A DNA stretch of 59,364 nt from Elusimicrobiaceae bacterium (GTDB lineage: Bacteria; Elusimicrobiota; Elusimicrobia; Elusimicrobiales; Elusimicrobiaceae). The notes under the pieces are model-generated. The model saw nothing but the letters and a program-made list of their open reading frames with translations, was not told where the DNA came from and ran no database searches. The position numbers and the translations under genes were made by a program. Where the stretch lies: assembly GCA_045225155.1 (NCBI GenBank), contig JBGVBB010000159.1:1-59364 (forward strand). Direction: 5' to 3'. Below, piece after piece: positions 2 through 58,013 of the stretch. Positions within the stretch are counted from its first letter, which is position 1. The number at the start of each line of letters is the position of its first letter.

Positions 2-337
2 TTTGCTAATTTTATGGATTGTATAAGATTAAATGATAACTATTCATTTGAGTACGCAAAATATTGTTTTTATGCACTATATAAGAATGGTATAACAAAT
101 CTGTATTATAACAAAACGACAGGATTACAAAATCTAAACATACAAAAATATTTTAGAGAAGTAAAACTTCCATTTCCTTCTTTAAAAGAACAGGGAGTTA
201 TAGCTGATTTCCTTGATTCTAAATGTGCAGAAATTGATAGTTCAATAGAGGATAAACAGAAACAGATTGAAGTCCTTGAAAGCTATAAGAAATCCTTAAT
301 TTACGAGTATGTAACAGGTAAGAAAGAGGTGGTATAA
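2..337 (+). CDS. hsdS: Type I restriction-modification specificity subunit HsdS, C-terminal fragment (5' end lies outside the window)
   Basis: The frame is open from the window edge. The tail 'LPFPSLKEQGVIADFLDSKCAEID..KQIEVLESYKKSLIYEYVTGKK' is the conserved HsdS C-terminal helical region. It lies directly upstream of hsdR. Confidence 0.8.
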   Translation, partial: FANFMDCIRLNDNYSFEYAKYCFYALYKNGITNLYYNKTTGLQNLNIQKYFREVKLPFPSLKEQGVIADFLDSKCAEIDSSIEDKQKQIEVLESYKKSLIYEYVTGKKEVV

Positions 338-766
338 ATGTTAGAACTTATTAAGATTTTTATAAACTCACAAATATTTGCCGTTATTGTTACAGCAGTG
401 CTTGCATTTTTATCTGCTGTGATTATTGATAGATGTAAGTATGATAGGGATGAAAAGCTTTATCTAAAACGAAAGAGAGAAGTTTTGTATCAAAAAATGT
501 ATGACTTCGCTATGAAATTTGAGAAGGATATAAGGGTAAAAGGGCGAACGGATATGTCAAGGGCTACAAAAGATTTGTGGAATGAAATTCAGATAGAAAG
601 TATATTTGGTAAACACGAAACTATGGAATATTTTTATGACCTGTTTGAGGACTTCCATAAGAACTTTGAAAAATCAGATGATATGTCGGAAATCCATATT
701 GAAAATAATAAGAGAATATTGGAATTTTATAAACACATTAAAGGTGAACTTGGGATAAAGGATTAA
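338..766 (+). CDS. Hypothetical membrane-anchored protein (142 aa) embedded between hsdS and hsdR
   Basis: The ATG directly abuts the hsdS TAA stop (335-337). There is one N-terminal hydrophobic helix (IFAVIVTAVLAFLSAVII) followed by a charged helical domain. I recognise no family. Confidence 0.55.
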   Translation: MLELIKIFINSQIFAVIVTAVLAFLSAVIIDRCKYDRDEKLYLKRKREVLYQKMYDFAMKFEKDIRVKGRTDMSRATKDLWNEIQIESIFGKHETMEYFYDLFEDFHKNFEKSDDMSEIHIENNKRILEFYKHIKGELGIKD

Positions 767-779
767 AGGGTAGATAATT

Positions 780-3740
780 ATGAACAAAATATTATCAGAG
801 AAAGAATACCAAGCATTTATATTGGAATATCTTAGTAAAAATAATGGCTATACCGTTCGAACAGATGGGAATTACGACAGATTAACCAGTATGGACAAAG
901 AGCTGTTCTTTAAGTTCTTGGAAGATACTCAGCCAAAAGAAATGGCTGAGTTAAGAAAAATTTTCAGAGACAGTTTAGAAGATACTCTTATAAACTATAT
1001 CAATAACGAAATGTCGAAGGCAAAAGGTAGTTTATTATATATCTTAAAACATGGTATTGATATATCTAACGTTCATCTGGATTTCATGTATACTAAACCT
1101 GCTACTGGGTTTAATCCGGAATTAACTAAGAAATATGAAAAAAATATATTTTCTGTTGCAGAGGAAATTTGGGCAAGTGATAAAGAAAGAGTGGATATTG
1201 TTATCTTTTTAAACGGCTTTGCAATAATGTCAATTGAGCTTAAGTGTAACTTTGCAGGACAGTCTTATGAGGATGCAATTTATCAATATAGGACACAAAG
1301 AAACCCTAGAACAAGATTATTCAAGTTTAAATGTGGTTGCCTTGTTAATTTTGCAATGGATTTAGAGCAAGTATATATGGCTACAAAGTTGTGCGGTCCT
1401 TCGACTTTGTTCTTACCATTTAACAGGGGTAATGGTGTTGGTGTTGAAGCAGGGGCAGGAAACCCAGCAGAAACGGGCGCTTCGTATATGTGGGAAGAGA
1501 TTTTAAAGAAGGATTCAATTCTTGAGCTTATTAGTAAGTTTATAATTCACGAAACTAAAGAAGAAGAGGATGTCCTTACAGGTAAGAAAAAAACCAAAGA
1601 GAATATTATATTCCCAAGATTTCATCAGAGAGATGTGTTACACAAAATTTTAGATGATGTTTATGAACACCATAGTTCTCAAAATTACTTAATTCAACAT
1701 AGTGCCGGAAGTGGTAAAACTTATTCTATTGCGTGGCTAGCATATAGGTTGTCTTCTTTACACGATGCCAACGATAAAATTATATTTGACAACATAATTA
1801 TTGTTACAGATAGGGTCGTAGTAGATAGACAATTACAGCAAGCAATATTGAACATGGAACATAAATCCGGTTTTATAAAGGTAATGGATGACAAATGTAC
1901 TTCTTCAGATTTGGCCTTTGCGCTTTCTGGTAATACTAAAATTATTGCCACTACAATCCAAAAATTTCAGTATATTGTTGATGAGGTAAATAACCTTAAG
2001 AATAAAAGGTTTGCCGTAATTATAGATGAGGCACATTCTTCTACAGCAGGTAAGAATATGGGAGCTGTTACAAAAGTTTTAGCTTCAGAAGACCAAGAAG
2101 AAAGTTCTACAGAAGATTTTATATGTAGTGAGATAAAGAGGCTTGGTAAGCAAAAAAATATTTCTGTTTTTGCTTTTACTGCTACACCTAAGAATACAAC
2201 ATTGGAATTGTTCGGGAAATTAAATTCTAAAGGACAAAAAGAAGCTTTTCATATTTACTCAATGAAACAGGCCATTGAAGAAGGATTTATTTTAGATGTG
2301 CTTCAAAACTATACAACTTATGATACTTTGTATAAGCTAAATAAAGAAATACAAGAAGACCCTGAATGTAAGACAAACAAAGCTAAGAGACAAATTGCCA
2401 GATTCATTGATTTACATGAAACAAATATAGCTCAAAGAATTGAAGTTATTATAGAGCATTTTAGAACTACTGTTATGAATGAGCTCGATGGAAAAGCTAA
2501 GGCAATGGTAATTACAGCTTCAAGGGAAGGGGCTGTCAAATATAAACAGGCATTTGAAAAGTATATTGAAAAGAAGGGGTATAGTGACATTAAGGCATTG
2601 GTAGCATTTTCCGGAAATGTTAAACTTAAAGACGATAAAAATGAATATTCTGAAGCAGGTATGAATGGTATTTCAGAAGATAAATTGCCCAAAGTGTTTG
2701 ATACGGATGAATATAATGTCCTACTAGTAGCCAATAAATATCAAACAGGTTTTGACCAGCCAAAACTATGTGCAATGTACGTTATGAAAAAGCTGCAAGG
2801 GGTTAATGCCGTACAAACATTATCAAGGTTAAATAGAATCTGCCCTCCATACAATAAAAAGACTTTTGTGTTGGATTTTGTTAATACTTATGAAGATATG
2901 GAAAAAGCGTTTAGTAAATATTATACGGTTACGTTGTTATCTAACTCTATAACCCCATCTTCAATATATGATTTAGAAGCTAAAATTGATGGATATTCTG
3001 TTATCGCCCCCAGAGATATAACCGAAGTTAATGAGTTATTATACAAAGAGAATATTACTGCCAATGATAAAAAACAATTACAATTTATTTTCTCTAGAAC
3101 CAAGAAAGAAGTGGAACAACTTGAGGAGATAACACGAAAAGAATTTATAGCTCATTTAAGGGGATTTGTACGGTTTTATGAGTTCTTACTTCAAGCTACT
3201 TGTTTTGAAGATATTGAGCTTCATAAGAAGTATAATTTCATTACTTACTTGCTAGCATATATAAACATAAGACACGGTGGAGACGGCTTTAACTTGGATG
3301 GCAAAATTAAGGCTATGAATTTTATACAGAAGAAAGTAAAAGAACATGTAAAATCTAGCATTAAATCCAACCCTATAGTTAAATTACCTGTAGCAGACCC
3401 ATTCCATTTAACAGAAGATAAGATTGCTAGATTATCAGAGATAATAGCTGAAATAAATAGTACTGTCGGTAAGAATTATGATAATGATGTCGCTGTCAAA
3501 GCTATGCTTCAAATTAAAGATATCATGATGAAGTCCGATAAACTAAGGACATCTGCAAAAAATAATACTTTAAAGAACTTTCAAATGGCATACTACACTG
3601 ACATAGATGAGGCATTGATTGCCGGATTAGAGCAAAATAGAGATTTCTTCACTCTGCTTTTGAACAATAATAAAATAAAGCAAGAGGTTTTAGGTATATT
3701 TGCAGAAGAAATCTATCATAGCTTGAGAAACGACAAGTAG
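780..3740 (+). CDS. hsdR: Type I restriction enzyme R subunit (HsdR), 986 aa
   Basis: N-terminal PD-(D/E)xK-like nuclease motif 'DIVIFLNG..SIELK'. SF2 helicase motif I 'HSAGSGKT' and DEAH box 'IIDEAHSS'. Size and position are typical of HsdR. Confidence 0.9.
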   Translation: MNKILSEKEYQAFILEYLSKNNGYTVRTDGNYDRLTSMDKELFFKFLEDTQPKEMAELRKIFRDSLEDTLINYINNEMSKAKGSLLYILKHGIDISNVHLDFMYTKPATGFNPELTKKYEKNIFSVAEEIWASDKERVDIVIFLNGFAIMSIELKCNFAGQSYEDAIYQYRTQRNPRTRLFKFKCGCLVNFAMDLEQVYMATKLCGPSTLFLPFNRGNGVGVEAGAGNPAETGASYMWEEILKKDSILELISKFIIHETKEEEDVLTGKKKTKENIIFPRFHQRDVLHKILDDVYEHHSSQNYLIQHSAGSGKTYSIAWLAYRLSSLHDANDKIIFDNIIIVTDRVVVDRQLQQAILNMEHKSGFIKVMDDKCTSSDLAFALSGNTKIIATTIQKFQYIVDEVNNLKNKRFAVIIDEAHSSTAGKNMGAVTKVLASEDQEESSTEDFICSEIKRLGKQKNISVFAFTATPKNTTLELFGKLNSKGQKEAFHIYSMKQAIEEGFILDVLQNYTTYDTLYKLNKEIQEDPECKTNKAKRQIARFIDLHETNIAQRIEVIIEHFRTTVMNELDGKAKAMVITASREGAVKYKQAFEKYIEKKGYSDIKALVAFSGNVKLKDDKNEYSEAGMNGISEDKLPKVFDTDEYNVLLVANKYQTGFDQPKLCAMYVMKKLQGVNAVQTLSRLNRICPPYNKKTFVLDFVNTYEDMEKAFSKYYTVTLLSNSITPSSIYDLEAKIDGYSVIAPRDITEVNELLYKENITANDKKQLQFIFSRTKKEVEQLEEITRKEFIAHLRGFVRFYEFLLQATCFEDIELHKKYNFITYLLAYINIRHGGDGFNLDGKIKAMNFIQKKVKEHVKSSIKSNPIVKLPVADPFHLTEDKIARLSEIIAEINSTVGKNYDNDVAVKAMLQIKDIMMKSDKLRTSAKNNTLKNFQMAYYTDIDEALIAGLEQNRDFFTLLLNNNKIKQEVLGIFAEEIYHSLRNDK

Positions 3741-4013: not shown

Positions 4014-4023
4014 TCGTCGAAAG

Positions 4024-4095
4024 TGCGCCTAACAGGAATCGAACTTGTATCCCCAGCTCCGCAGGCTGGTGCTCTATCCATTGAGCTATAGGCGC
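4024..4095 (-). tRNA. tRNA-Arg, anticodon read as GCG
   Basis: The reverse complement folds as a cloverleaf: GCGCCTA/TAGGCGC acceptor, GCTC/GAGC D-stem, CCAGC-CTGCGGA-GCTGG anticodon arm and TTCGATT T-loop. There is one A:C mismatch in the T-stem. CCA is not encoded. Confidence 0.85.
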
Positions 4096-8700: not shown

Positions 8701-8782
8701 GACTGCAAAACGCGCCAAGAAAAGCGATTATTTTAAAGAATTGAGGAAATTTCATTATGTCCCTTCAAGATCTAAAAGATAG
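5747..8782 (+). CDS. addB: AddB-type helicase-nuclease subunit (PD-(D/E)XK nuclease with C-terminal Cys cluster)
   Basis: 1011 aa. C-terminal RecB-family nuclease motif 'ADRID....VIDYKSK', plus 'QPPIYL' and Cys cluster 'CSFCDFKDIC'. Overlaps and precedes addA. Confidence 0.8.
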   Translation: MHLFTGSPLALKKQFLETIKQLKQNPLERVLVVIPSKHLEARLKAELCEKLFCLAGVNFMPLSALAGEINRTAKTPPPPLAEDTPLIDFKIKNLLKESGFNANRGLAICFKNSFRDLINAEVTPEALALIKEDEDLILDEQKNYLNTFIPLYSKFLEIQKEPGKSTYRDYFIFARGNAVNNPFLNSFKSIIFYGFYDLTSLHFELIKAVINSYADITQVYLPYEKQSAYTFVEPVFNTLFLPLCKQHTKLESENNLIKTAAENIFTPDQKRTYDANIEIIKVSGEGEVQAAAKEILKLRKSGLAYKDIALTFRGEGGFNTKILEVFKQNEIPLNYNFSFPLLQKPFAAFVYNLFNLESTNFAREEVLAVINSPFFALKQNEWADMVQQSGVECSITQFEEMLEADVPNQKQIFIDTLKEIKAYLTALKQPGSFANLAKKAKDFLLKYTSADAQTKQAEMLAKITDILEVISTYSKTGIDAKNGEFLEEFFSLLKEATFNKVSSAPNAVEAADIMTLRLQDFKAVIILGLNEGVLPLVPKQDPALKEVYRQSLRKPLRRALQNIGYLIHTTQNRYFEENFLFYLALSAAQQKAVLTYKTSDLEGKTLVKSVFITMLLNVLGKTEDDLKSFSRRPLERLKNDINQELLTKEEAASLIALIKPSSKEVLGNLLSTEQEKDLFEKLYFDLRALASQNSLTDFDGLINESAGKIYPSYFSPTALGTLFACPAKYLFSRIAGREKDIFSRSEIASDKKGSLYHDILKDFYSLIKSKRNFLTITWPETENLFNDFFDNRFSKSSVEKYGLYPLLWEVIKGKIKENLLNFIKKDLENIQKRGFVPNNFEYSVKSTLTVNNTNLTLQAIADRIDKSQDGKESVVIDYKSKYNSASMERLIFVKSSLQPPIYLEVLNKGDNICSSAELAFIEHEVKNPFKALTIDQYNLMKSKFTALLALLKDLADKGIFPIYPEGEDHCSFCDFKDICRKNHLPTAKRAKKSDYFKELRKFHYVPSRSKR

Positions 8783-11700
8783 AGTATGCGCGGTAGAAAA
8801 TAACAGCCAAAACATTATTGTGGAGGCCGGCGCCGGTACGGGCAAAACCACTTTGCTTGTGCGGAAAATGCTTTTCCTAGTATTTGTAAAAAAGGTAAAA
8901 CTCTCAAGGGTTATTGCCCTTACATTTACAACAAAAGCGGCCGCATCTTTAAAACAAAAAATGGAAGAAAATTTGCATAAGGCATATCAAATATTATTGC
9001 ACGATTCTTTCGTTTTAACCGCTACTGACGAAGTTTATGCCGACCGTGTAAAAGATTTAAAACCGGAAGACAAAAGAAATCTTGATAATTTTAGAAGTTT
9101 GTTTTTAAAATCAAATTTAAATTTGGAAGGTTTATTTTCATTACTTAAAACCGCCCTTGAAGAATTGCCTTTATGCCAGATAGGAACTATACACAGTTTT
9201 TGTAATTTCCTGCTAAAAAAATATGCCGTTGAAGCGAATTTAAATACAAATATGCAAATTGACGAGGCCGGCATAATCAATATAATTTTTGATAAATACT
9301 GGGCTTTGTTTTTAGAAGAAGAATTAAATCTAAATTCCGCCCAAAAAGATATTTGGTTAACTATTTTGAAAGAAGTTAATTTAGCGGATTTATATAGTTT
9401 GGCACGCAATTTGTGCAGGCCGGGTTTTGACGATTATGCCCCTCAAAATAATTACAAAATTTTAAAAGAACAAGCCCAAAAATATTTGAAGCAAGCGGAA
9501 CTTTTGATAGAAGAATATCAGGAAACTAAAGGCAATATGATACCGCTTTTAAAAATATGTTGCGAAAGTTTAAAACAAACTATTGCCTTTTACAGCGGTG
9601 AACTTGATGACTGCGCGGAGCCTGTTTTCCCGACATTCCCTAACTCTCTTGTCGGTAATTGGGAACAAAATGATTTTGATTTAGCACGGGAAATAGTTAC
9701 TTTTGCGGAAAATAATACCCCGCACAAACAAAAAATATTAGCATTATCTTATAAAATATTAAAACCGTTTTCGGTTAAAGTACAAAGGGAAATGCTAAAC
9801 CAAAATTATTTAACTTTTGACGAAATTATTTATAAAACACATCACTTGCTTTTAACCAATAAAGCCGCCAGACAGGAAATAAAATTAACTTATGATAATA
9901 TTTTTATTGACGAATTCCAAGATACTGACCCTATTCAAGGAGAGATAATGTTATTTTTGGCGGAAAAAATCGATTCTTTCGCAAGCAAATGGCAAGATTT
10001 AATTTTGGAACAAGGTAAACTTTTTATTGTCGGTGATCCTAAACAATCTATTTATCGTTTCAGGGGGGCAGATATTTCCGCCTATCAGGCATTTTGTAAT
10101 CTGCTTATGAAACAAGGGGCACAAACTTGTGTTTTAAGAAATAATTTCAGGAGCGCAAGCGAGATTATCGATTATGTAAATACCTTCGGCAAAGAACAAA
10201 TAAAATTTAAACCTAATTGCCAAGCCGAGTATAATGAGATTTACCCAAGTAAACAATTTAATAATGCAAGGGTAGAACTGCATTTATATAAACCTTCCGA
10301 AGATATTAATAAAGCAAATAGCAGGATTGCCCACGCAGGTTGCATAGCAAAATGGATTGTCGATAATGTTAAAAAAGCCGTTAAAAGCGACGGTAGTATA
10401 CTAGATTATAAAGATATCGCTTTACTGTTACCTACTACAACGGAAGTTAATATCTTCCTTGATGCTTTAAAGGAAAATAATATCCCGTACAATGTAGAAG
10501 AAGATAAAAATTTTTATTCTTCACAAGAAATATTGGACCTTATAAATATCTTAAAAGTTTTAAAAGATCCGCAAGATAAAATTTCTTTGCTCGGTGTTTT
10601 AAGAAGCCCGGTGTGCTTGGCAAAAGATGAAGTTTCGGTAAATTTATCGAAGGAAAATAAACTTAGCATATTCGCCGAAGTTAATGATGATAAAATACAA
10701 AGCACATATCAAAAATTAAGGGTTTTAAGGGATAAATTATCAACTTTAAATCCGTTGGAACTTATTAATGAAATTTTGGATATTTTTAATTTTACCGCCT
10801 GCCAAGTGCTTGCGTCTTCAAACGAACAGGTTCTTGCAAATATAGCCAAATTCAAACAAGTGGTAACAAGATTGTTTGAAAACGGTTCTTATACTTTAGA
10901 ACAACTTTTAGATAACTTTGAAACATATCAAAAAGAAATTAATGAAGAATCAAACGCAATTTTGGCGGAAGAAAATTTTAATGTAGTGAAAATATTAACG
11001 GTACATAAAGCAAAAGGGTTGGAATTCCCGGTAGTAATTTTGACTGATCTTTCCAAACAATTCAGCCAGGGTGATAACCGCAGAAACGGCAACAGTAATG
11101 TTTTCTATTCAAGGAGTTTAAATTTAAAAGGCATAACATTAGGCGGTATAAAAGATGGCATCGTTCCTTTAATAGAAAAGGAAAAACAAGCCCAAGAACT
11201 TGAAGAAAAACGCCGCCTTTTATACGTAGCCATGACGCGCGCCAAAGAAACTTTAATAATAGTGGACAGTTTAAAAGTACAAGATAAAACCTTCGTAAAA
11301 TTTTTAAGTGACAGCATTTGTTGGCCGAGTGAAGATAAAATGCAAAATAATATTTCAACGGCAAAAGTGTTTTATTATGATTATGCCTTGCCGGAACTTT
11401 CTTTAAATAAACAAAATACGGAAGAAGATAAAAATTTCTTTTTTAATTATACTGCTTGGGCTCAAAATTATAAAGAAAGAAATAAAGAATTTAAAAAATA
11501 TTTAAAAGACAACGAGCTACCTCAAACAGATACTGACATACTTTTCCCATCATCTGAAGTCGAACATGCGATAAAAGTCGGTAATTTATGCCACAAAATT
11601 TTACAAAATATTTTTAATAAAACAACAATGAATTTCGATTTCGAAGAAGATAAAACCGCAATAACCGAAGCACAGAAAATAATAAATAATTTTTGCCAAA

Positions 11701-20394: not shown

Positions 20395-22251
20395 ATGTTT
20401 AAAAGCATAAAAACATTTTTTTTAGGGGTGTTTTTAATTTCTCCGATTGTGTTTCTTATTATGTACACAATCAATACAGCACGCAATGAAGCGCCGAAAA
20501 CTAATGTCAATTTGTCTAATCTAAAACTTGTAACCCCGGTTGCAATTATTGATGAAATAAGTAAAAAAATTGAAGAAGAAGATATCGATGATGCCTCATC
20601 TAAAATAAAAATGGAATTGCCTGATCCGAATATCCCGTCTTCTAAAGGAACACCACTTATAGTATTAGCGGCAGAAAAGGATTACACGGATATTGTCAAT
20701 GATTTAATACAAAAAGGTGCTGATCCTAATAAAGCAGATTTGAATACTTCGGAAACAGCTTTAATTAAAGCTATAAAAAATCAAAATATTGAAACAATTT
20801 CCGTTTTATTAAATGCCGGTGCAAATCCTAACATGGCAACAAATCAGGGGTTAACACCTTTGGGGCTTGCCATTAATTTAAAAAATGAAAGGCTTGCGAC
20901 ACTTTTATTATCAAGCGGTGCAACTAACGGAATAAGCAAAGAAAATTTACTTTTATATGCTTTTAGAAAGAACCCCGTAGGTGTTGCTTTAATGCTTTCG
21001 GGCGGTATTTCCCCGAATGTAACAGATGCCGATAATAATACTCCGTTAATAATTTCATCTGCGAACGGTGATTTTGACAGTGTTAAGGAACTTATTTCTT
21101 ATAGAGCAAATGTTAATACTAAAAATAAACATGGAATGAATCCGCTATTATATGCGGTGAAAGGTAAATATTGGGATATAGCGGAATATTTAATAGCTAA
21201 TGGTTCAAAAATTAACACCAGTAATATTTATGGCCAAAATGCACTTTTCTGGGCGGCTTATCATGGTAATGCCAATTTAGTTCATGATCTTTTAATGCGT
21301 GGTGCAAATTATCAGAAAAAGACCCGCCGTGGTCAAACCGCTTTGCAAATGGCTAGGGCATTAGGTCATAAAGAAGCCGCTAAAATGTTGGAAGATTTTA
21401 TCGCTTATAAGAATTTACCCAGGGACAGTAAAGGTAATATTATTTTACCTAAAGTAAATCAACAGCAAACAGCCGTTGCAACTAAAACTGTTCCTGTACA
21501 AAATACCGGCACCGGTCAGTATGTGAATAATGCTGTTGTTTCCGGTATCAAAAATCAAGTGCAACAAAATCAGCAGGTAACACAACAACAAATGCAGCAA
21601 CCTCAAACCGTTGTTCAACAACAAGCGGTTCAAGCACCGGTTCAAACACAACAGGTTCAAAGAAGAACCCAACAAAATCAATTACCGGTTTCCAATACTC
21701 AAACGAATATGCAACCTGCTAAGACACAAATAAATACTTTGCAACCCGCGTCTAATGAAGCGGAAATGCCCCAAATGCCTGGCGGGATGGATATGTCCGC
21801 AGTAATGTCAATGATGGGGGCTGCTCAAGGTCATGCCCAAGGGGGGCAAGCAGGCGGAGATATGTCGGCAATGGTTAAACAAATGCAAACTATGGGTGCC
21901 GCAACTGCACAAAACGGATCCAAGACACAGCAAATGCAAAATATACCTTCAAATGTAGAAATGCCTGCCGGTATGAATATGAATGATATTTCAAAGATGA
22001 TTCCCGCCGGTGCTTTGCCGGCAGGAACGGATTTGAATAATTTATCTTCAATGAGTCCCGAACAATTAAAGAAGATGGGTGTTCCGGAAGACCAAATTGC
22101 TAATATAACTAAAGCCCAGCAAATGGCACAAACTCAAAACCAGGCTACTTCCGGTAATGGTTTTCAACCGAAAGATTTAAATAATAATGATTCATATGCT
22201 AACGGCGTACCTAAAACCAAAATCAACAAACTCCAAACTTCCGGGGATTAA
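20395..22251 (+). CDS. Ankyrin-repeat protein with N-terminal TM/signal anchor and Q/M/G-rich low-complexity C-terminal half
   Basis: About 7 ANK units with the pattern 'TPL..A......V..LL..GA.PN'. The C-terminal ~250 aa are Gln/Met-rich (QQQMQQPQTVVQQQAVQAPVQTQQ..). Confidence 0.85.
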   Translation: MFKSIKTFFLGVFLISPIVFLIMYTINTARNEAPKTNVNLSNLKLVTPVAIIDEISKKIEEEDIDDASSKIKMELPDPNIPSSKGTPLIVLAAEKDYTDIVNDLIQKGADPNKADLNTSETALIKAIKNQNIETISVLLNAGANPNMATNQGLTPLGLAINLKNERLATLLLSSGATNGISKENLLLYAFRKNPVGVALMLSGGISPNVTDADNNTPLIISSANGDFDSVKELISYRANVNTKNKHGMNPLLYAVKGKYWDIAEYLIANGSKINTSNIYGQNALFWAAYHGNANLVHDLLMRGANYQKKTRRGQTALQMARALGHKEAAKMLEDFIAYKNLPRDSKGNIILPKVNQQQTAVATKTVPVQNTGTGQYVNNAVVSGIKNQVQQNQQVTQQQMQQPQTVVQQQAVQAPVQTQQVQRRTQQNQLPVSNTQTNMQPAKTQINTLQPASNEAEMPQMPGGMDMSAVMSMMGAAQGHAQGGQAGGDMSAMVKQMQTMGAATAQNGSKTQQMQNIPSNVEMPAGMNMNDISKMIPAGALPAGTDLNNLSSMSPEQLKKMGVPEDQIANITKAQQMAQTQNQATSGNGFQPKDLNNNDSYANGVPKTKINKLQTSGD

Positions 22252-55938: not shown

Positions 55939-56880
55939 ATGACGGATATCCGTGTAACAGAACAGAAAGTTATTAATTCCGATGGCCAAATAGTATTGGA
56001 TATGGCTTCGGCATATGAAGTCGGGAATTATGGTGATTTATTATCAAGATATATTGTGGAAAAATTATCCGGACGGAAAGTAATTAAATATTCTGGAAAT
56101 AATATTTACCATTTATGTGCCATAGGATCTGTATTAAACAGAAGACAAATATGTTCTAATGCATTGGTATGGGGATGAGGTTTTATTAATCCGCAAAATA
56201 GCAGATGTAAAATGTTGTTGACTAAGTTTCGTCAAAAATTACGCGGTAAAGCCGGTAAACCTTTATATTTAGCGGTACGAGGGCCTAAATCACGTGACAT
56301 TTTGTTACAAAACGGTTATCAATGCCCGGCTATTTATGGAGATCCTGCCCTTATAATGCCTGTTTTATATCCTAAGAACACTTCTAAAAAATATAAATTA
56401 GGGATAGTTCTCCATTTTGTACATGATAAGTTTGCAAATGTATTTTCCGGTTTAAAATCATGTAAAGTGATTGATATTAACAGAAAATATGAAGAAATAA
56501 ATAATTTTGTAGATGAATTGACTTCATGTGATATGATATTGAGTTCTTCTTTACACGGGTTAATTATTGCCAATGCATACGGAATACCGAGTGTACGACT
56601 AAAAATTACCGGTAAACCTATTGCGACGAGCGAATATAAAGATGATTTTAAATTTGAAGATTATATTGCGGGTTTAAATTCTCTTAAAGTTAGCAAAACC
56701 GATCCGGATTATGTGTTAAATACTGTTTTTATTTCGCCGGATGCTAGATTAGATCAAAATTTTATTAATGATGTTAAGGAAAAAACGACAAAACCTGAAT
56801 TTAAATTTGACTTAACACCTTTAATAGAAGTTTTCCCTTTTTTAGACACTAAATATAAAAACAAGAAATATATAATTTAA
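55939..56880 (+). pseudogene. Polysaccharide pyruvyl transferase family gene interrupted by a single in-frame TGA (56176-56178)
   Basis: ORFs 55939-56178 and 56212-56880 are in the same frame. The read-through product gives '..ALVWG*GFINP..LAVRGP.SR..L...G....IYGDPAL' and 'SSSLHGLIIANAYGIPS', which matches the PS_pyruv_trans pattern. Confidence 0.65.
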
Positions 56881-56938
56881 TTTTGGTATAAATTACAATT
56901 AAAAAACCGTATTAAACGATTTATTGTTTATAAAATTT

Positions 56939-57045
56939 GGGCGGCGGGTTCCCCTTCCGTCATTTCCTTAACGAAAAATGATCTAGGGCTTGCCCTCGCG
57001 GTTTTTGCCTTTGCCTTCGGCAAAACTCGCACAACGCTCCAAGCC
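56939..57045. repeat. Unit R1 of the tRNA-Pro-3'-end-derived GC-rich tandem repeat (most degenerate)
   Basis: Starts with gggcggcggg, the complement of the tRNA-Pro acceptor/T-stem 3' strand. Aligns with R2 through 'ctcgcggtttttgcctttgc' and 'caacgctcc'. Confidence 0.7.
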
Positions 57046-57055
57046 AATTTTTAAA

Positions 57056-57087
57056 ACAAAAAACCACCTTTCGGTGGTTTCTATTTT
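57056..57087. terminator. Bidirectional terminator-like hairpin between R1 and R2
   Basis: aaaccacc (57061-57068), loop tttc, ggtggttt (57073-57080). A and T runs flank both sides. Confidence 0.6.
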
Positions 57088-57093
57088 AAAAAA

Positions 57094-57212
57094 TCGGGGC
57101 GGCGGGATTCCCCTACGGTCTTTTTGCTGACGCAAAAAGCCTTCGGGCCCGGGCTCGCGGTTTTTGCCTTTCGCTTCGCTCAAACAAAAACAACGCTCCG
57201 CCCTTCGAATCC
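57094..57212. repeat. Unit R2 of the tRNA-Pro-derived repeat
   Basis: The first 17 nt 'tcggggcggcgggattc' are identical to 57440-57456, the 3' end of tRNA-Pro(CGG). It contains the hairpin ctttttgc-tgac-gcaaaaag (57120-57139) and 'gccttcgggc'. Confidence 0.75.
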
Positions 57213-57231
57213 AAAACCTCACTTTATTTAA

Positions 57232-57403
57232 TGGGGCGGCGGGGATTCGGCCACAAGTCGCCTTACTGACGTGCGGCGCTCGCGGCCCCGCCTCGCCATC
57301 CTCGCCTTTCGCGCTCGCCTAAACGGCTCACGCTCAAACTCGGATATGGCTGCGGCCTTCGAATCCCGACGGAAGCCAAGCAGTTGGCTTCCTCCGTCCG
57401 GGA
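57232..57403. repeat. Unit R3 of the tRNA-Pro-derived repeat (longest, about 70% G+C)
   Basis: Starts 'tggggcggcggggattcgg'. Its right end 'gctgcggccttcgaatcc' is homologous to the R2 right end. A terminal hairpin spans gacggaagccaa..ttggcttcc.tccgtc (57368-57398). Positions 57241-57300 are 43/60 G+C by hand count. Confidence 0.7.
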
Positions 57404-57408
57404 AAATT

Positions 57409-57434
57409 AAAAAGCACCCAAAAGGGTGCTTTTA
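57409..57434. terminator. Bidirectional rho-independent terminator immediately 3' of tRNA-Pro(CGG)
   Basis: aaaagcaccc (57410-57419), loop aaaa, gggtgctttt (57424-57433). Confidence 0.8.
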
Positions 57435-57439
57435 AATTT

Positions 57440-57512
57440 TCGGGGCGGCGGGATTCGAACCCACGACCTCACGGTCCCGAACCGTGCGCGCTACCAACTG
57501 CGCTACGCCCCG
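57440..57512 (-). tRNA. tRNA-Pro (CGG)
   Basis: Cloverleaf on the minus strand: CGGGGCG/CGCCCCG acceptor, GCGC/GCGC D-stem, CACGG-TTCGGGA-CCGTG anticodon arm and GTGGG-TTCGAAT-CCCGC T-arm. Confidence 0.93.
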
Positions 57513-57541
57513 TAAAAATTATTGGTAATTAAAAGTAAAAA

Positions 57542-57613
57542 TCGGGGAACCGAGAATCGAACTCGGGACCTCTCGCACCCCAAGCGAGCGCTATACCACT
57601 AAGCCATTCCCCG
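57542..57613 (-). tRNA. tRNA-Pro (GGG)
   Basis: Minus strand: CGGGGAA/TTCCCCG acceptor, CTCGC-TTGGGGT-GCGAG anticodon arm and CCGAG-TTCGATT-CTCGG T-arm. Confidence 0.9.
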
Positions 57614-57659
57614 AAACACTACTCACATTAAGTACCCCAAAGGAGTACCTATATATATT

Positions 57660-58013
57660 TTAGCATTCTTTTAGTATTTGTGAAAGGGTTTCTCTGATTT
57701 CTTTTAAAAATCTCAAATTTTTTGCACTGTAAAAATTTGGATCTTCTTTATTTCCACCGACGGCAAAAAAGCGGTTTAAATGTTTTTTGGCACCGGCAAC
57801 CGTCATTTTATGTTTGTAAATAAGTTCTTTAATTTGTAAGACTACTTCAATGTCCGCTTTAGTATATCTGCGGTGATGTGATGCCTTTTTTATAGGGTTT
57901 AAAGCAGTAAAATTTTTTTCCCAATACCTTATAGTATACTCCGGCACGCTGCAAATGCGGGCTACTTCGCCAATGGTAAAAAAATCTTTTTTAGTTAACT
58001 CTTCTAAAGTCAT
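57660..58013 (-). CDS. MerR-family transcriptional regulator
   Basis: N-terminal MerR HTH 'FTIGEVARICSVPEYTIRYWEKNF'. ATGA overlap with the upstream HU/IHF gene. Confidence 0.85.
   Translation of the reverse strand: MTLEELTKKDFFTIGEVARICSVPEYTIRYWEKNFTALNPIKKASHHRRYTKADIEVVLQIKELIYKHKMTVAGAKKHLNRFFAVGGNKEDPNFYSAKNLRFLKEIRETLSQILKEC

Follow-up and report, generated by a model that had tools for sequence, protein, structure and literature searches.

The window analysed here is a stretch of 59 kb (59,364 nucleotides) of contig JBGVBB010000159.1 in the assembly GCA_045225155.1 of an Elusimicrobiaceae bacterium, and all positions without a locus number refer to it. The DNA is AT-rich (~35% G+C) and contains five tRNA genes, and behind one of them, the minus-strand gene of tRNA-Pro(CGG), lies a tandem array of three related GC-rich units in the same orientation, each of which ends in a copy of the tRNA 3' end. 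These units belong to a large family of structured, gene-less cassettes linked to tRNA 3' ends, and the question followed below is what such cassettes are and how they arrive behind a tRNA gene. A first-pass annotation, made from the sequence alone, had described them as R1, R2 and R3, and its coordinates and most of its details proved correct; the names U1, U2 and U3 are used for the same units here. The array is bordered by genes for a MerR protein, HU and GpsA on one side and by a pyruvyl transferase gene on the other. The tRNAs for Arg, Gly, Phe and Pro (anticodon GGG) in the window carry no cassette. The features of the locus are the following.

57657-57684, minus strand: sigma-70-like promoter of the tRNA-Pro(GGG)/tRNA-Pro(CGG) operon (TTCACA-16-TAAAAT, 10 of 12 matches, TG extension)
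57541-57614, minus strand: tRNA-Pro(GGG), called by ARAGORN and Rfam, without cassette
57440-57512, minus strand: tRNA-Pro(CGG), called by ARAGORN and Rfam, the target and anchor of the array
57440-57456, minus strand: left direct repeat, the final 17 nt of tRNA-Pro(CGG), GAATCCCGCCGCCCCGA
56936-57439, minus strand: the whole tandem array of three units
57410-57433, minus strand: terminator hairpin T1, between an A-tract and a T-tract, separating the tRNA from U3
57232-57403, minus strand: U3, the intact unit
57394-57399, minus strand: U3, P1-5' strand GGACGG, antisense to CCGCC of the tRNA-like 3' end
57371-57392, minus strand: U3, hairpin A (P2), 9-bp stem with the family-invariant loop AACUGCUU; 9 of 9 pairs with changes on both sides
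57358-57368, minus strand: U3, P3-5' strand CGGGAUUCGAA, read from the sequence
57290-57357, minus strand: U3, P4, a long hairpin whose internal loops are tandem G.A and whose pairs U.G U.G are near-invariant
57249-57287, minus strand: U3, P5 and hairpin C with the loop CGUCAG
57232-57248, minus strand: U3, direct repeat GAAUCCCCGCCGCCCCA at the 3' end, which copies the tRNA-Pro 3' end imperfectly and supplies the 3' strands of P3 and P1
57094-57212, minus strand: U2, a 5'-truncated unit lacking P1-5', hairpin A and 2 nt of P3-5'
57151-57203, minus strand: U2, P4
57110-57150, minus strand: U2, P5 and hairpin C
57094-57110, minus strand: U2, perfect direct repeat of 17 nt, identical to 57440-57456
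57059-57082, minus strand: terminator hairpin T2, ahead of U1, separating U2 from U1
56936-57045, minus strand: U1, the most decayed unit, beginning within P4
56995-57040, minus strand: U1, P4 portion
56951-56994, minus strand: U1, P5 and hairpin C
56936-56950, minus strand: U1, degenerate direct repeat AACCCGCCGCCCAAA

The two terminator hairpins had been noticed earlier as bracketing the array; both exist, but they are separators, one between the tRNA and U3 and the other between U2 and U1. T1, the tRNA 3' end and the P1-5' strand together make up one extended imperfect palindrome with 37-nt arms that are 73% complementary. The promoter of the tRNA-Pro operon is the sole consensus promoter near the array. 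No promoter of consensus level was found ahead of the units, where the upstream region offers the terminator T-tract only. Beyond the repeat of U1 follows the flank that directly adjoins the tRNA in an allele without units (see below).

The presence of a tRNA 3' end copy in each unit, as first reported, was confirmed by a search with the tRNA-terminal 15-mer GAATCCCGCCGCCCC. Allowing up to three mismatches, it occurs four times in the window (the tRNA end itself, 57096-57110, 57233-57247 and 56938-56952), as compared with an average of 0.56 in shuffled sequences, and none of 100 shuffles reached four. The identity of U2 with the tRNA over 17 nt is exact. The units are also homologous to each other: U1 and U2 have a block of 95 nt in common at 72% identity, and the blocks shared by U2 and U3 and by all three are shorter. 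Their G+C content is high (0.62-0.66 over 57200-57400 versus ~0.35 for the window). An nhmmer profile and a covariance model made from homologues both recovered exactly these three units and no further ones in the 59 kb. U3 was matched end to end by the covariance model (137.8 bits, E = 6e-36), U2 by nhmmer with 104 bits over positions 38-171 of the hidden Markov model (HMM), and U1 with 38-45 bits (45 with nhmmer). Tandem Repeats Finder gave no report on the window, because the units are too diverged and of unequal lengths.

Homologues were collected by scanning metagenomes of the Joint Genome Institute (JGI) with a pattern of the core only, made without reference to the tRNA-like end. The scan returned at least 120 loci, mostly from rumen and gut, and the family is a widespread one. 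The counts of units, arrays and neighbouring open reading frames (ORFs) given below are drawn from these listed loci, in which nhmmer found 157 hits and the covariance model 116 units. Intact cassettes are roughly 170-210 nt long. They contain a conserved structured core of ~110 nt and no ORF. A pattern derived from the units also found two Elusimicrobiaceae metagenome-assembled genomes (MAGs) among the GTDB representatives. In one of them (L010) the MerR/tRNA-Pro/tRNA-Pro synteny of the window is kept and a full-length unit is present. The other (L011) has a full-length unit at 227-400 with a tRNA-Pro-type 3' end and its own terminator ahead, and no tRNA in the 225 nt upstream, where the contig ends; this unit may be a displaced copy or the result of an assembly break. 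Judging from the two named MAGs and from linked pilin-like genes, the majority of the loci appear to belong to Elusimicrobiota; besides Elusimicrobiaceae, other uncultured bacteria carry the cassettes.

Rfam 15, compared with the window, 32 related loci and a consensus-like unit at gathering as well as E-value thresholds, yielded nothing beyond tRNAs and weak hits of the terminator type. The best non-tRNA scores in the window were 12-25 bits, as against gathering scores of 37-116, and the confident Rfam match that would have made the units members of a known family, a possibility raised in the first-pass annotation, did not appear. The Rfam models of tmRNA, YrlA, 6S, ROOL/GOLLD and HEARO likewise had no match in the window. 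A full-text literature search, including literal strings of the core sequence, found no description of the family. Two known classes were considered and rejected. As tRNA pseudogenes the units do not qualify, only their last ~17-20 nt being colinear with the tRNA and neither ARAGORN nor the Rfam tRNA model calling them, and for the hammerhead and other known self-cleaving ribozyme cores there was no motif match. Of the early interpretations, that of a tRNA-derived repeat family therefore holds insofar as the family is tied to tRNA 3' ends, not in the sense of derivation from tRNAs as pseudogenes, and that of structured non-coding RNAs pointed in the right direction, to a large family with a fold supported by covariation. 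We regard it as close to certain that this family is real, structured and linked to tRNAs, and its relation to tRNA 3' ends is unprecedented.

Read in the sense of the tRNA, a full unit consists of a terminator (A-tract, GC hairpin, T-tract), the 5' strand of helix P1 (P1-5', about 5-7 nt), hairpin A, the 5' strand of helix P3 (P3-5'), the core with P4 and with P5 and hairpin C, and the direct repeat (DR). Hairpin A has a covarying 9-bp stem and the invariant loop AACUGCUU and is followed by GU, P3-5' (8-11 nt) and GAAG. P4 is a long hairpin with two G.A-rich internal loops and a variable tip, often GAA or GAAA, and holds the nearly invariant helix GUUUUUGUUU/AGGCAAAAAC, which includes two U.G pairs. 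P5 encloses hairpin C with its loop CGUCAG, and then come the 3' strands of P3 and P1, which lie in the DR, the closing sense copy of the last ~17-20 nt of the neighbouring tRNA. The terminator, that is, the hairpin at the left end, is not conserved in sequence. At L048 (3657-3832) and L124 (2618-2732) one unit has an insertion of ~45 nt (CCGTCACCCGCCAGCAACGCTGTGGCGTAGCTACTGCGGGCTGGG...) in place of the tip of hairpin C, which therefore tolerates expansion. A resemblance of hairpin A to a dif/Xer site was considered and rejected, as a likeness to the XerC arm is found in one stem variant only and the stems covary freely.

This five-helix fold is strongly supported. In the alignment of 116 sequences, standard pairing was found in 94.3% of the cells versus 73.7% after shuffling, and 35 of the 41 pairs showed changes on both sides. 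The covariation score was 0.49, compared with 0.14 for shuffled alignments and 0.05-0.07 for slid registers, and 0 of 500 shuffles reached the observed value; the compensatory changes thus go beyond both kinds of control, as in structured RNAs generally. RNAalifold, run on an independent MAFFT alignment, agreed with 25 of 33 pairs compensatory. Two pairings that had been seen in the window by eye were recovered in the family: the hairpin that differs between U1 and U2 and yet remains paired is hairpin C (10 of 10 pairs with both-side changes in the 116 homologues), and the long-range pairing of the U3 ends is helix P3 (GGGAUUC/GAAUCCC in the minus-strand fold).

The strand, which at first had seemed impossible to assign, is the minus strand of the window, i.e. 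the tRNA-sense strand. Two tandem pairs are U.G in 110 of the 112 aligned homologues with letters at these positions and U-A in the other two, and they would be C.A mismatches on the opposite strand. In agreement, the fold of U3 had z = -3.96 on the minus strand versus -2.29 on the plus strand. The C(UUCG)G loops noted on the plus strand thus sit on the non-functional strand. Another early claim was that the homology of U2 to the tRNA resumes at ccctacggtc and stops at the anticodon loop. This stretch is not tRNA-derived, since ACCG(U/C)AGGGG is the conserved 3' strand of P5 and is also found behind tRNA-Arg and tRNA-Thr; the argument from a breakpoint at the anticodon loop fails with it, the stretch being a conserved helix strand of the family. 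It may be added that G.A tandems, GAA and GAAA loops and G.T or G.U wobbles are stable in RNA and in single-stranded DNA alike.

The link to tRNAs was counted on the 106 arrays with at least 200 nt of upstream sequence. Ninety-five of them begin within 400 nt 3' of a co-oriented tRNA, and the tRNAs concerned represent 17 amino-acid specificities. With stereotyped spacing, the core lies ~95-105 nt from the tRNA end in the common type and 63-65 nt from it in a directly fused subtype, and 42-55 nt (mostly 43) past the core comes a repeat of up to 17-20 nt of the tRNA end. This terminal repeat spans the T-loop to the discriminator of the unit's own tRNA. Where the tRNA gene encodes CCA (L106, L070, L039 and L080), the terminal repeat of the cassette carries CCA too; it thus follows the 3' end as the gene encodes it and not the acceptor stem alone.

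The unit is matched to its tRNA in a second way. P1-5' and P3-5', which lie on either side of the invariant-loop hairpin, are antisense to the last ~18 nt of the tRNA. In U3 the P3-5' strand CGGGAUUCGAA is perfectly reverse-complementary to UUCGAAUCCCG, which comprises the T-loop and the 3' strand of the T-stem. Across the family, what precedes the core on its 5' side is likewise reverse-complementary to the T-loop and 3' strand of the tRNA (e.g., CAGGAUUUGAA for UUCAAAUCCUG) and does not copy the 5' half. P3-5' changes with the T-loop variant of the tRNA concerned, be it UUCGAA, UUCAAA, UUCAAG or UUCGAC (e.g., ...GGAUUCGAA for UUCGAAUCC, ...GGAUUUGAA for UUCAAAUCC and ...GGACUUGAA for UUCAAGUCC); it is therefore antisense to the 3' half and cannot be explained as a copy of the 5' half. 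Because the two segments are antisense to the tRNA end, they can pair either with the DR of their own unit or, across the terminator, with the 3' end of the tRNA. Their mean duplex energy was -19.0 kcal/mol with the cognate tRNA tail, -15.9 with their own DR and -10.6 +/- 3.8 with non-cognate tails, and the better partner was the tRNA tail in 40 units and the unit's own repeat in 7, with 23 ties.

The fused subtype ('type II') was seen at L024, L025, L044, L064, L089, L104, L107, L119 and L123. Its units start 0-2 nt after the tRNA and have neither terminator nor P1; in the lower stem of their extended hairpin A, the final 2-4 nt of the tRNA and an A-run are paired. These loci are without the pilin-like neighbours found elsewhere and may come from other phyla.

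In strains ~98% identical to the window, identified by contigs that encode the neighbouring MerR protein, the array is polymorphic, and the comparison of synteny proposed earlier did yield an empty site. In L003 the tRNA end is joined straight to the flank that follows U1 in the window (...CCGCCCCGA directly followed by TTTTACAAAC; the flank also reads TTTTACAAACAATAAATCG). In the filled alleles the insertion begins exactly after the tRNA end; it is precise, without terminal inverted repeats (TIRs), and the empty site is clean. L006 carries a single insert of 158 nt, made up of T2 and a U1-like unit, with the junction of tRNA end and T2 as in the window. The window is longer than L003 by 505 nt and than L006 by 346 nt, and the junctions fall in the 17-nt repeat. 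Since no terminator hairpin is present in the empty allele, these hairpins are part of the inserted DNA. Breaks of Logan contigs within tRNA-Pro(CGG) were discarded as evidence of polymorphism, as they are explained by other species that share the 5' two-thirds of the tRNA.

The composition of the arrays points the same way. In 10 of 14 arrays the neighbouring units were not each other's closest relatives. The core of U3 is 91% identical to a unit behind tRNA-Leu(GAG) on another contig, whereas the nearest relatives of U2 stand behind tRNA-Pro(CGG) genes of other Elusimicrobiaceae, so that local duplication did not produce the array. At one tRNA-Arg locus (L065 versus L125) the flanks are 98-100% identical, whereas ~33 differences in 200 nt, many of them compensatory, lie exactly between the tRNA end and the DR, which amounts to the replacement of a whole cassette. 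Copies truncated at the 5' end, copies truncated at the 3' end and chimeric copies are common. At least nine loci (L126, L047, L084, L042, L092, L094, L023, L060 and L070) have arrays that end in the loop of hairpin A (AACTGC), and at least six (L045, L072, L074, L083, L097 and L102) have arrays that end after P3-5', at its boundary with P4; in L069 and in the third unit of L051 the A hairpins of different units are joined into chimeric ones. Such recurrent breakpoints suggest site-specific nicking or strand exchange and are not explained by fixed transposon ends. Minimal 'landing pads', consisting of a tRNA, a terminator, P1-5' and half of hairpin A but no unit, were not found among 80 unit-less tRNAs, where a different cassette family came to light.

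An enzyme linked to the units was sought by all-against-all BLAST of 487 neighbouring ORFs from ~120 loci. The only recurrent neighbour family consisted of pilin-like proteins of Elusimicrobia (21 loci), the rest being scattered housekeeping genes, and no integrase, transposase, reverse transcriptase (RT) or other mobile-element gene was linked to the units in these loci. A Pfam scan of 40 ORFs of the window found type I restriction-modification (R-M), AddAB-like, Obg, GlyQS and similar proteins and no integrase, transposase or RT; the genes of the window are housekeeping ones. Pattern scans of viral contigs gave 0 hits, and BLAST against phage and plasmid collections gave no match.

Two further kinds of cassette were observed. 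One, called family 'X' here, is a long hairpin of ~120 nt with inverted ends (AAAACNCNCTATTTC...GAAATAGNGNGTTTT), followed after ~60 nt by a copy of the same tRNA's 3' end. It interleaves with the units, or stands between tRNA and unit, at 14 loci (e.g., L127:8549-8739 and 8747-8869, L133:464-566 and 767-887, and also L125, L112, L080, L109, L114, L023, L038, L040 and L065), has no Rfam match and is absent from the window. The other was seen in L055 (1263-1420) and, directly after tRNA-Lys, in L019 and L021, the family occurring behind tRNA-Val and tRNA-Lys. It shares the scaffold, having a hairpin-A-like stem, a P3-5' strand that is antisense to the T-loop, and the tRNA end copied at its terminus, but its core is another one, with a long hairpin and GAYCCUGUAAGGRUC, and it is missed by the nhmmer model of the main family. 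The three families are unrelated and follow the same rule, i.e. they are placed after a tRNA end and end in its copy.

We interpret the units, with a probability of about 0.55, as mobile cassettes, site-specific and non-autonomous, which home to the 3' ends of tRNA genes and accumulate there in arrays. A cassette would home to the tRNA gene whose 3' end it both carries and complements, and would be inserted exactly past the last nucleotide of the tRNA or, which is equivalent, by exchange within the repeat from T-loop to 3' end. Such an insertion would keep the tRNA intact, bring a new terminator and regenerate the target; since the target would be regenerated each time, cassettes could stack. 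The newest copy would then be the one next to the tRNA (the intact U3), and older copies would be pushed distally and decay (U2 and U1), which makes U1 the oldest unit of the array. The early idea of serial integration and excision scars survives in one respect, as the alleles with 0, 1 and 3 units indicate growth by serial insertion; the units are not remnants of prophages or of integrative and conjugative elements (ICEs).

As to how this might work, we infer a single-stranded intermediate, either single-stranded DNA (ssDNA) or RNA, that folds so that the DR and the antisense segments rebuild the target duplex. Two alternative folds could be formed, one in which a repeat pairs with P1-5' and P3-5' across the terminator and one in which the pairing encloses P4 and P5, and these would be circular permutations of each other. 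Strand exchange would be performed by an enzyme acting in trans. The element would then be programmed by nucleic acid: a gene-less cassette of ~200 nt whose folded strand presents a split guide of ~18 nt around the invariant-loop hairpin, the guide recognising both the target, i.e. the 3' end of a specific tRNA gene, and the target-mimicking end of the cassette itself. One enzyme in trans could insert cassettes behind any tRNA by a change of the guide alone, and the conserved core of P4 and P5 could serve as the scaffold for enzyme binding or for catalysis. That the antisense segments program the targeting is a tentative suggestion, and we consider it somewhat doubtful.

Several observations weigh against mobility of this kind. 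Neutral decay of the distal DR would also make the antisense segments match the tRNA better than their own DR, and in the tRNA-Pro units P1 pairs in a shifted register (GGCGG/CCGCC) and is not a copy of the 7-bp acceptor stem. The type II units have a repeat of only ~6-10 nt (e.g., CCACAAAA) and no terminator. The right ends of arrays are heterogeneous, since the flank may follow the DR, the DR and a terminator, or an incomplete further unit that breaks off in loop A or past P3-5', which is not predicted for a transposon with fixed ends. The alleles with 0, 1 and 3 units could also spread by ordinary homologous recombination of the flanks, without active transposition, and the right flank is more diverged (96-97%) than the left one (98-99%). 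No candidate for the enzyme was found among the linked genes, and no circular or excised intermediate was seen in these data. Finally, the very strong conservation of the core, with its G.A loops, GNRA-type tips and U.G pairs, looks like that of a functional RNA, and a function at the level of the host or of RNA is therefore possible.

This last point leads to the main alternative, which we hold to be unlikely, at perhaps one chance in a few, namely that the units are genes of tRNA-mimicking small RNAs, beneficial to the host or tolerated by it, in which P1 stacked on P3 imitates the minihelix of acceptor and T arm. RNase P would cleave read-through transcripts on the 5' side of P1, and the enzymes that process tRNA 3' ends would cleave them past the DR, giving a stable RNA of ~175 nt with a conserved core that binds protein or is catalytic; arrays and their variation in copy number would come from unequal recombination between the tRNA-like ends. 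Such genes could be mobile as well. In favour of them are the strong purifying selection on fold and core (near-invariant U.G, G.A internal loops, GAAA and GAA tips), the strand, which agrees with that of the tRNA in 95 of 106 arrays, the pairing of the 5' segments with their own 3' end at -15.9 as compared with a control of -10.5 kcal/mol, and the better minus-strand fold of U3 (z = -3.96 versus -2.29). Many single units are followed by a second terminator, as expected of an RNA gene, and the fused subtype must be co-transcribed with its tRNA. However, a terminator stands between the tRNA and each type I unit, with no consensus promoter ahead, and the units' own DRs are often decayed while the core is intact. 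Only one of the five tRNAs of the window carries units, near-identical strains have 0, 1 or 3 copies, neighbours in an array come from different subfamilies, and truncated copies are frequent; moreover, unequal recombination can neither make the first copy nor retarget the core to 17 tRNA types. Alternatively, the units would be retro-elements, a bacterial analogue of the SINE type (short interspersed nuclear elements) or of the retrozyme type, whose read-through transcript, trimmed in loop A, at a terminator or at a tRNA-like end, is copied by an RT encoded elsewhere and whose cDNA is joined at the 3' end of the tRNA gene through the homology of the DR. The left boundary of the insert is indeed the mature tRNA 3' end, including the encoded CCA where present, the right boundaries fit plausible RNA 3' ends (the tRNA-like end, the U-tract of a terminator, the loop of hairpin A), the structural features are RNA-like, and 5'-truncated copies occur (U2, U1, L022 and L041). 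Yet fragments truncated at the 3' end, with the 5' part only, are about as common, no RT was linked to the ~120 listed loci, read-through into a template should be limited by the terminator that precedes each unit, and an A-rich tail or another hallmark of retro-elements is missing; we consider retro-elements improbable.

Two more explanations, one of them the early idea of integrase att scars and the other a simple local duplication, are essentially excluded. If prophages, ICEs or islands had been integrated serially in tRNA-Pro by tyrosine integrases and then lost, each event would have left a copy of the tRNA 3' end (attR) and a short remnant. For T-loop-targeting integrases the identity block is the interval from the T-loop to the tRNA 3' end, and the direct repeat of the units spans just this interval; the repeats are also co-oriented with the tRNA and bound inserted DNA, and an empty site exists. 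But the supposed remnants are full-length members of one conserved, covarying family of 175 nt, and a single family behind 17 tRNA types with co-varying antisense segments cannot be produced by random deletion. Neither an integrase nor a phage or ICE gene lies by any of the ~120 listed loci, the phage, plasmid and viral collections gave no matches, and whole cassettes are exchanged between near-identical genomes, which leaves the scars a very small probability. Even smaller, practically negligible, is the probability that the tRNA-Pro trailer was duplicated locally in tandem and its copies then diverged, without any biology at the level of a family: three units of the same orientation with blocks at 70-80% identity would suit it, whereas each unit has closer relatives in other genomes or behind other tRNAs, at least 120 homologous loci exist, and Tandem Repeats Finder was silent.

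The cassettes resemble integron attC sites, the attP(+) of CTX phage, the guides of IS608 and bridge RNAs, but by their defining features they belong to none of these. Like integron attC cassettes, they are small promoterless units in same-orientation arrays at a fixed chromosomal site with the newest copy next to the anchor, their site is an imperfect hairpin with a covarying stem in which only short motifs are fixed, and cassettes of mixed lineage were found side by side in copy numbers that vary among strains. They differ from them in that neither IntI nor attI was found; arrays are headed by a tRNA gene, whose 3' end serves as the anchor and of which there are at least 17 kinds, the alignment of the units shows no R or L boxes (GTTRRRY), the units carry no ORF but a structured core of ~110 nt, and the folded region contains a copy of the target. 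CTX phage and other integrative mobile elements exploiting Xer (IMEX), whose folded ssDNA attP(+) imitates dif for the XerCD of the host, share with the cassettes the absence of an own recombinase, a single strand that could rebuild the target duplex, and tandem arrays in which old copies persist. In contrast, the cassettes target the tRNA 3' end and not dif, are gene-less at ~200 nt and were found in no filamentous-phage context, and an involvement of Xer or another host enzyme would be pure speculation.

With the IS200/IS605 group (IS608), the palindrome-associated transposable elements (PATEs) and the repetitive extragenic palindromes with their RAYT transposases (REP/RAYT), the units have in common the lack of terminal inverted repeats, strand specificity, a precise empty site, insertion precisely 3' of a recognised sequence without the usual transposon duplication, and segments at a hairpin foot that are complementary to the target or cleavage site. 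Their complementarity, however, extends over ~18 nt instead of 4-5 nt, a copy of the target forms the right end, neither TnpA nor TnpB is linked to them, the left terminator hairpin is unconserved and the array ends are heterogeneous. Miniature inverted-repeat transposable elements (MITEs) do not fit either, because the terminator side and the P5/DR side are not inverted repeats and no duplication of fixed length was found, the repeat being ~6-10 nt in type II and 17-20 nt in type I. The bridge (seek) RNAs of IS110/IS1111 are likewise structured, non-coding and ~175 nt long, with split guide segments around a stem that match the target, donor and target being recognised by base pairing; unlike them, the units adjoin no gene of a DEDD or serine recombinase, show no similarity by Rfam or BLAST, have one guide region at a three-way junction where bridge RNAs have separate target and donor loops, and form RNA-only arrays. 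The tRNA-targeting integrative elements and their deleted derivatives that are mobilizable in cis (CIMEs) likewise have inserted DNA flanked by direct repeats of the tRNA segment that runs from the T-loop to the 3' end, and can accrete serially at one tRNA, but the units are 100 to 1000 times smaller, lack an integrase, have a conserved structured core, are directed at many tRNA types and contain the repeat a second time, internally and in antisense. Stable RNAs with tRNA-like parts that are matured by tRNA-processing enzymes include the small stable RNAs of the tRNA cluster of phage T4 and the tRNA-like domains of tmRNA and YrlA. In these, too, the ends can form an acceptor-like stem on a second helix, on the same strand and in a tRNA operon, but unlike the units they are not matched to one neighbouring tRNA, have no polymorphic arrays and lack the logic of antisense and sense repeats.

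If the units are guide-directed elements, they would represent a new, very small and gene-less form of programmable site-specific insertion, a minimal natural analogue of recombination of the bridge-RNA or attC type, and the combination of an ~18-nt guide and a sense copy of the target would be of interest for genome engineering; they would also help to understand the universal use of tRNA 3' ends as landing sites. Should they be tRNA-mimicking RNAs instead, they would form a large, hitherto undescribed family of ribonucleoprotein RNAs or ribozymes in a poorly studied phylum. Either way, they explain the GC-rich, assembly-breaking and strain-variable DNA behind tRNA genes of rumen and gut Elusimicrobiota and add a new fold of RNA or ssDNA, supported by covariation, with 116 aligned members and at least 120 loci. 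The existence of at least three unrelated families under the same rule makes the insertion machinery directly testable.

Some other features of the window may be mentioned. The polysaccharide pyruvyl transferase gene next to the array (plus strand, 55939-56178 and 56212-56880) seems to be split: an ORF of 222 aa matches the Pfam profile at positions 112-275 only, another of 79 aa lies just upstream, and the exact product is absent from the protein collection searched. This may reflect a frameshift or a pseudogene. At the start of the window, positions 14-3740 on the plus strand hold type I R-M genes (a fragment of the S subunit and the R subunit), after which follows tRNA-Arg(GCG) at 4023-4095. 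A protein of 618 aa, encoded at 20395-22251 on the plus strand beside the RNase III gene, consists mostly of ankyrin repeats, which is unusual for a free-living bacterium.

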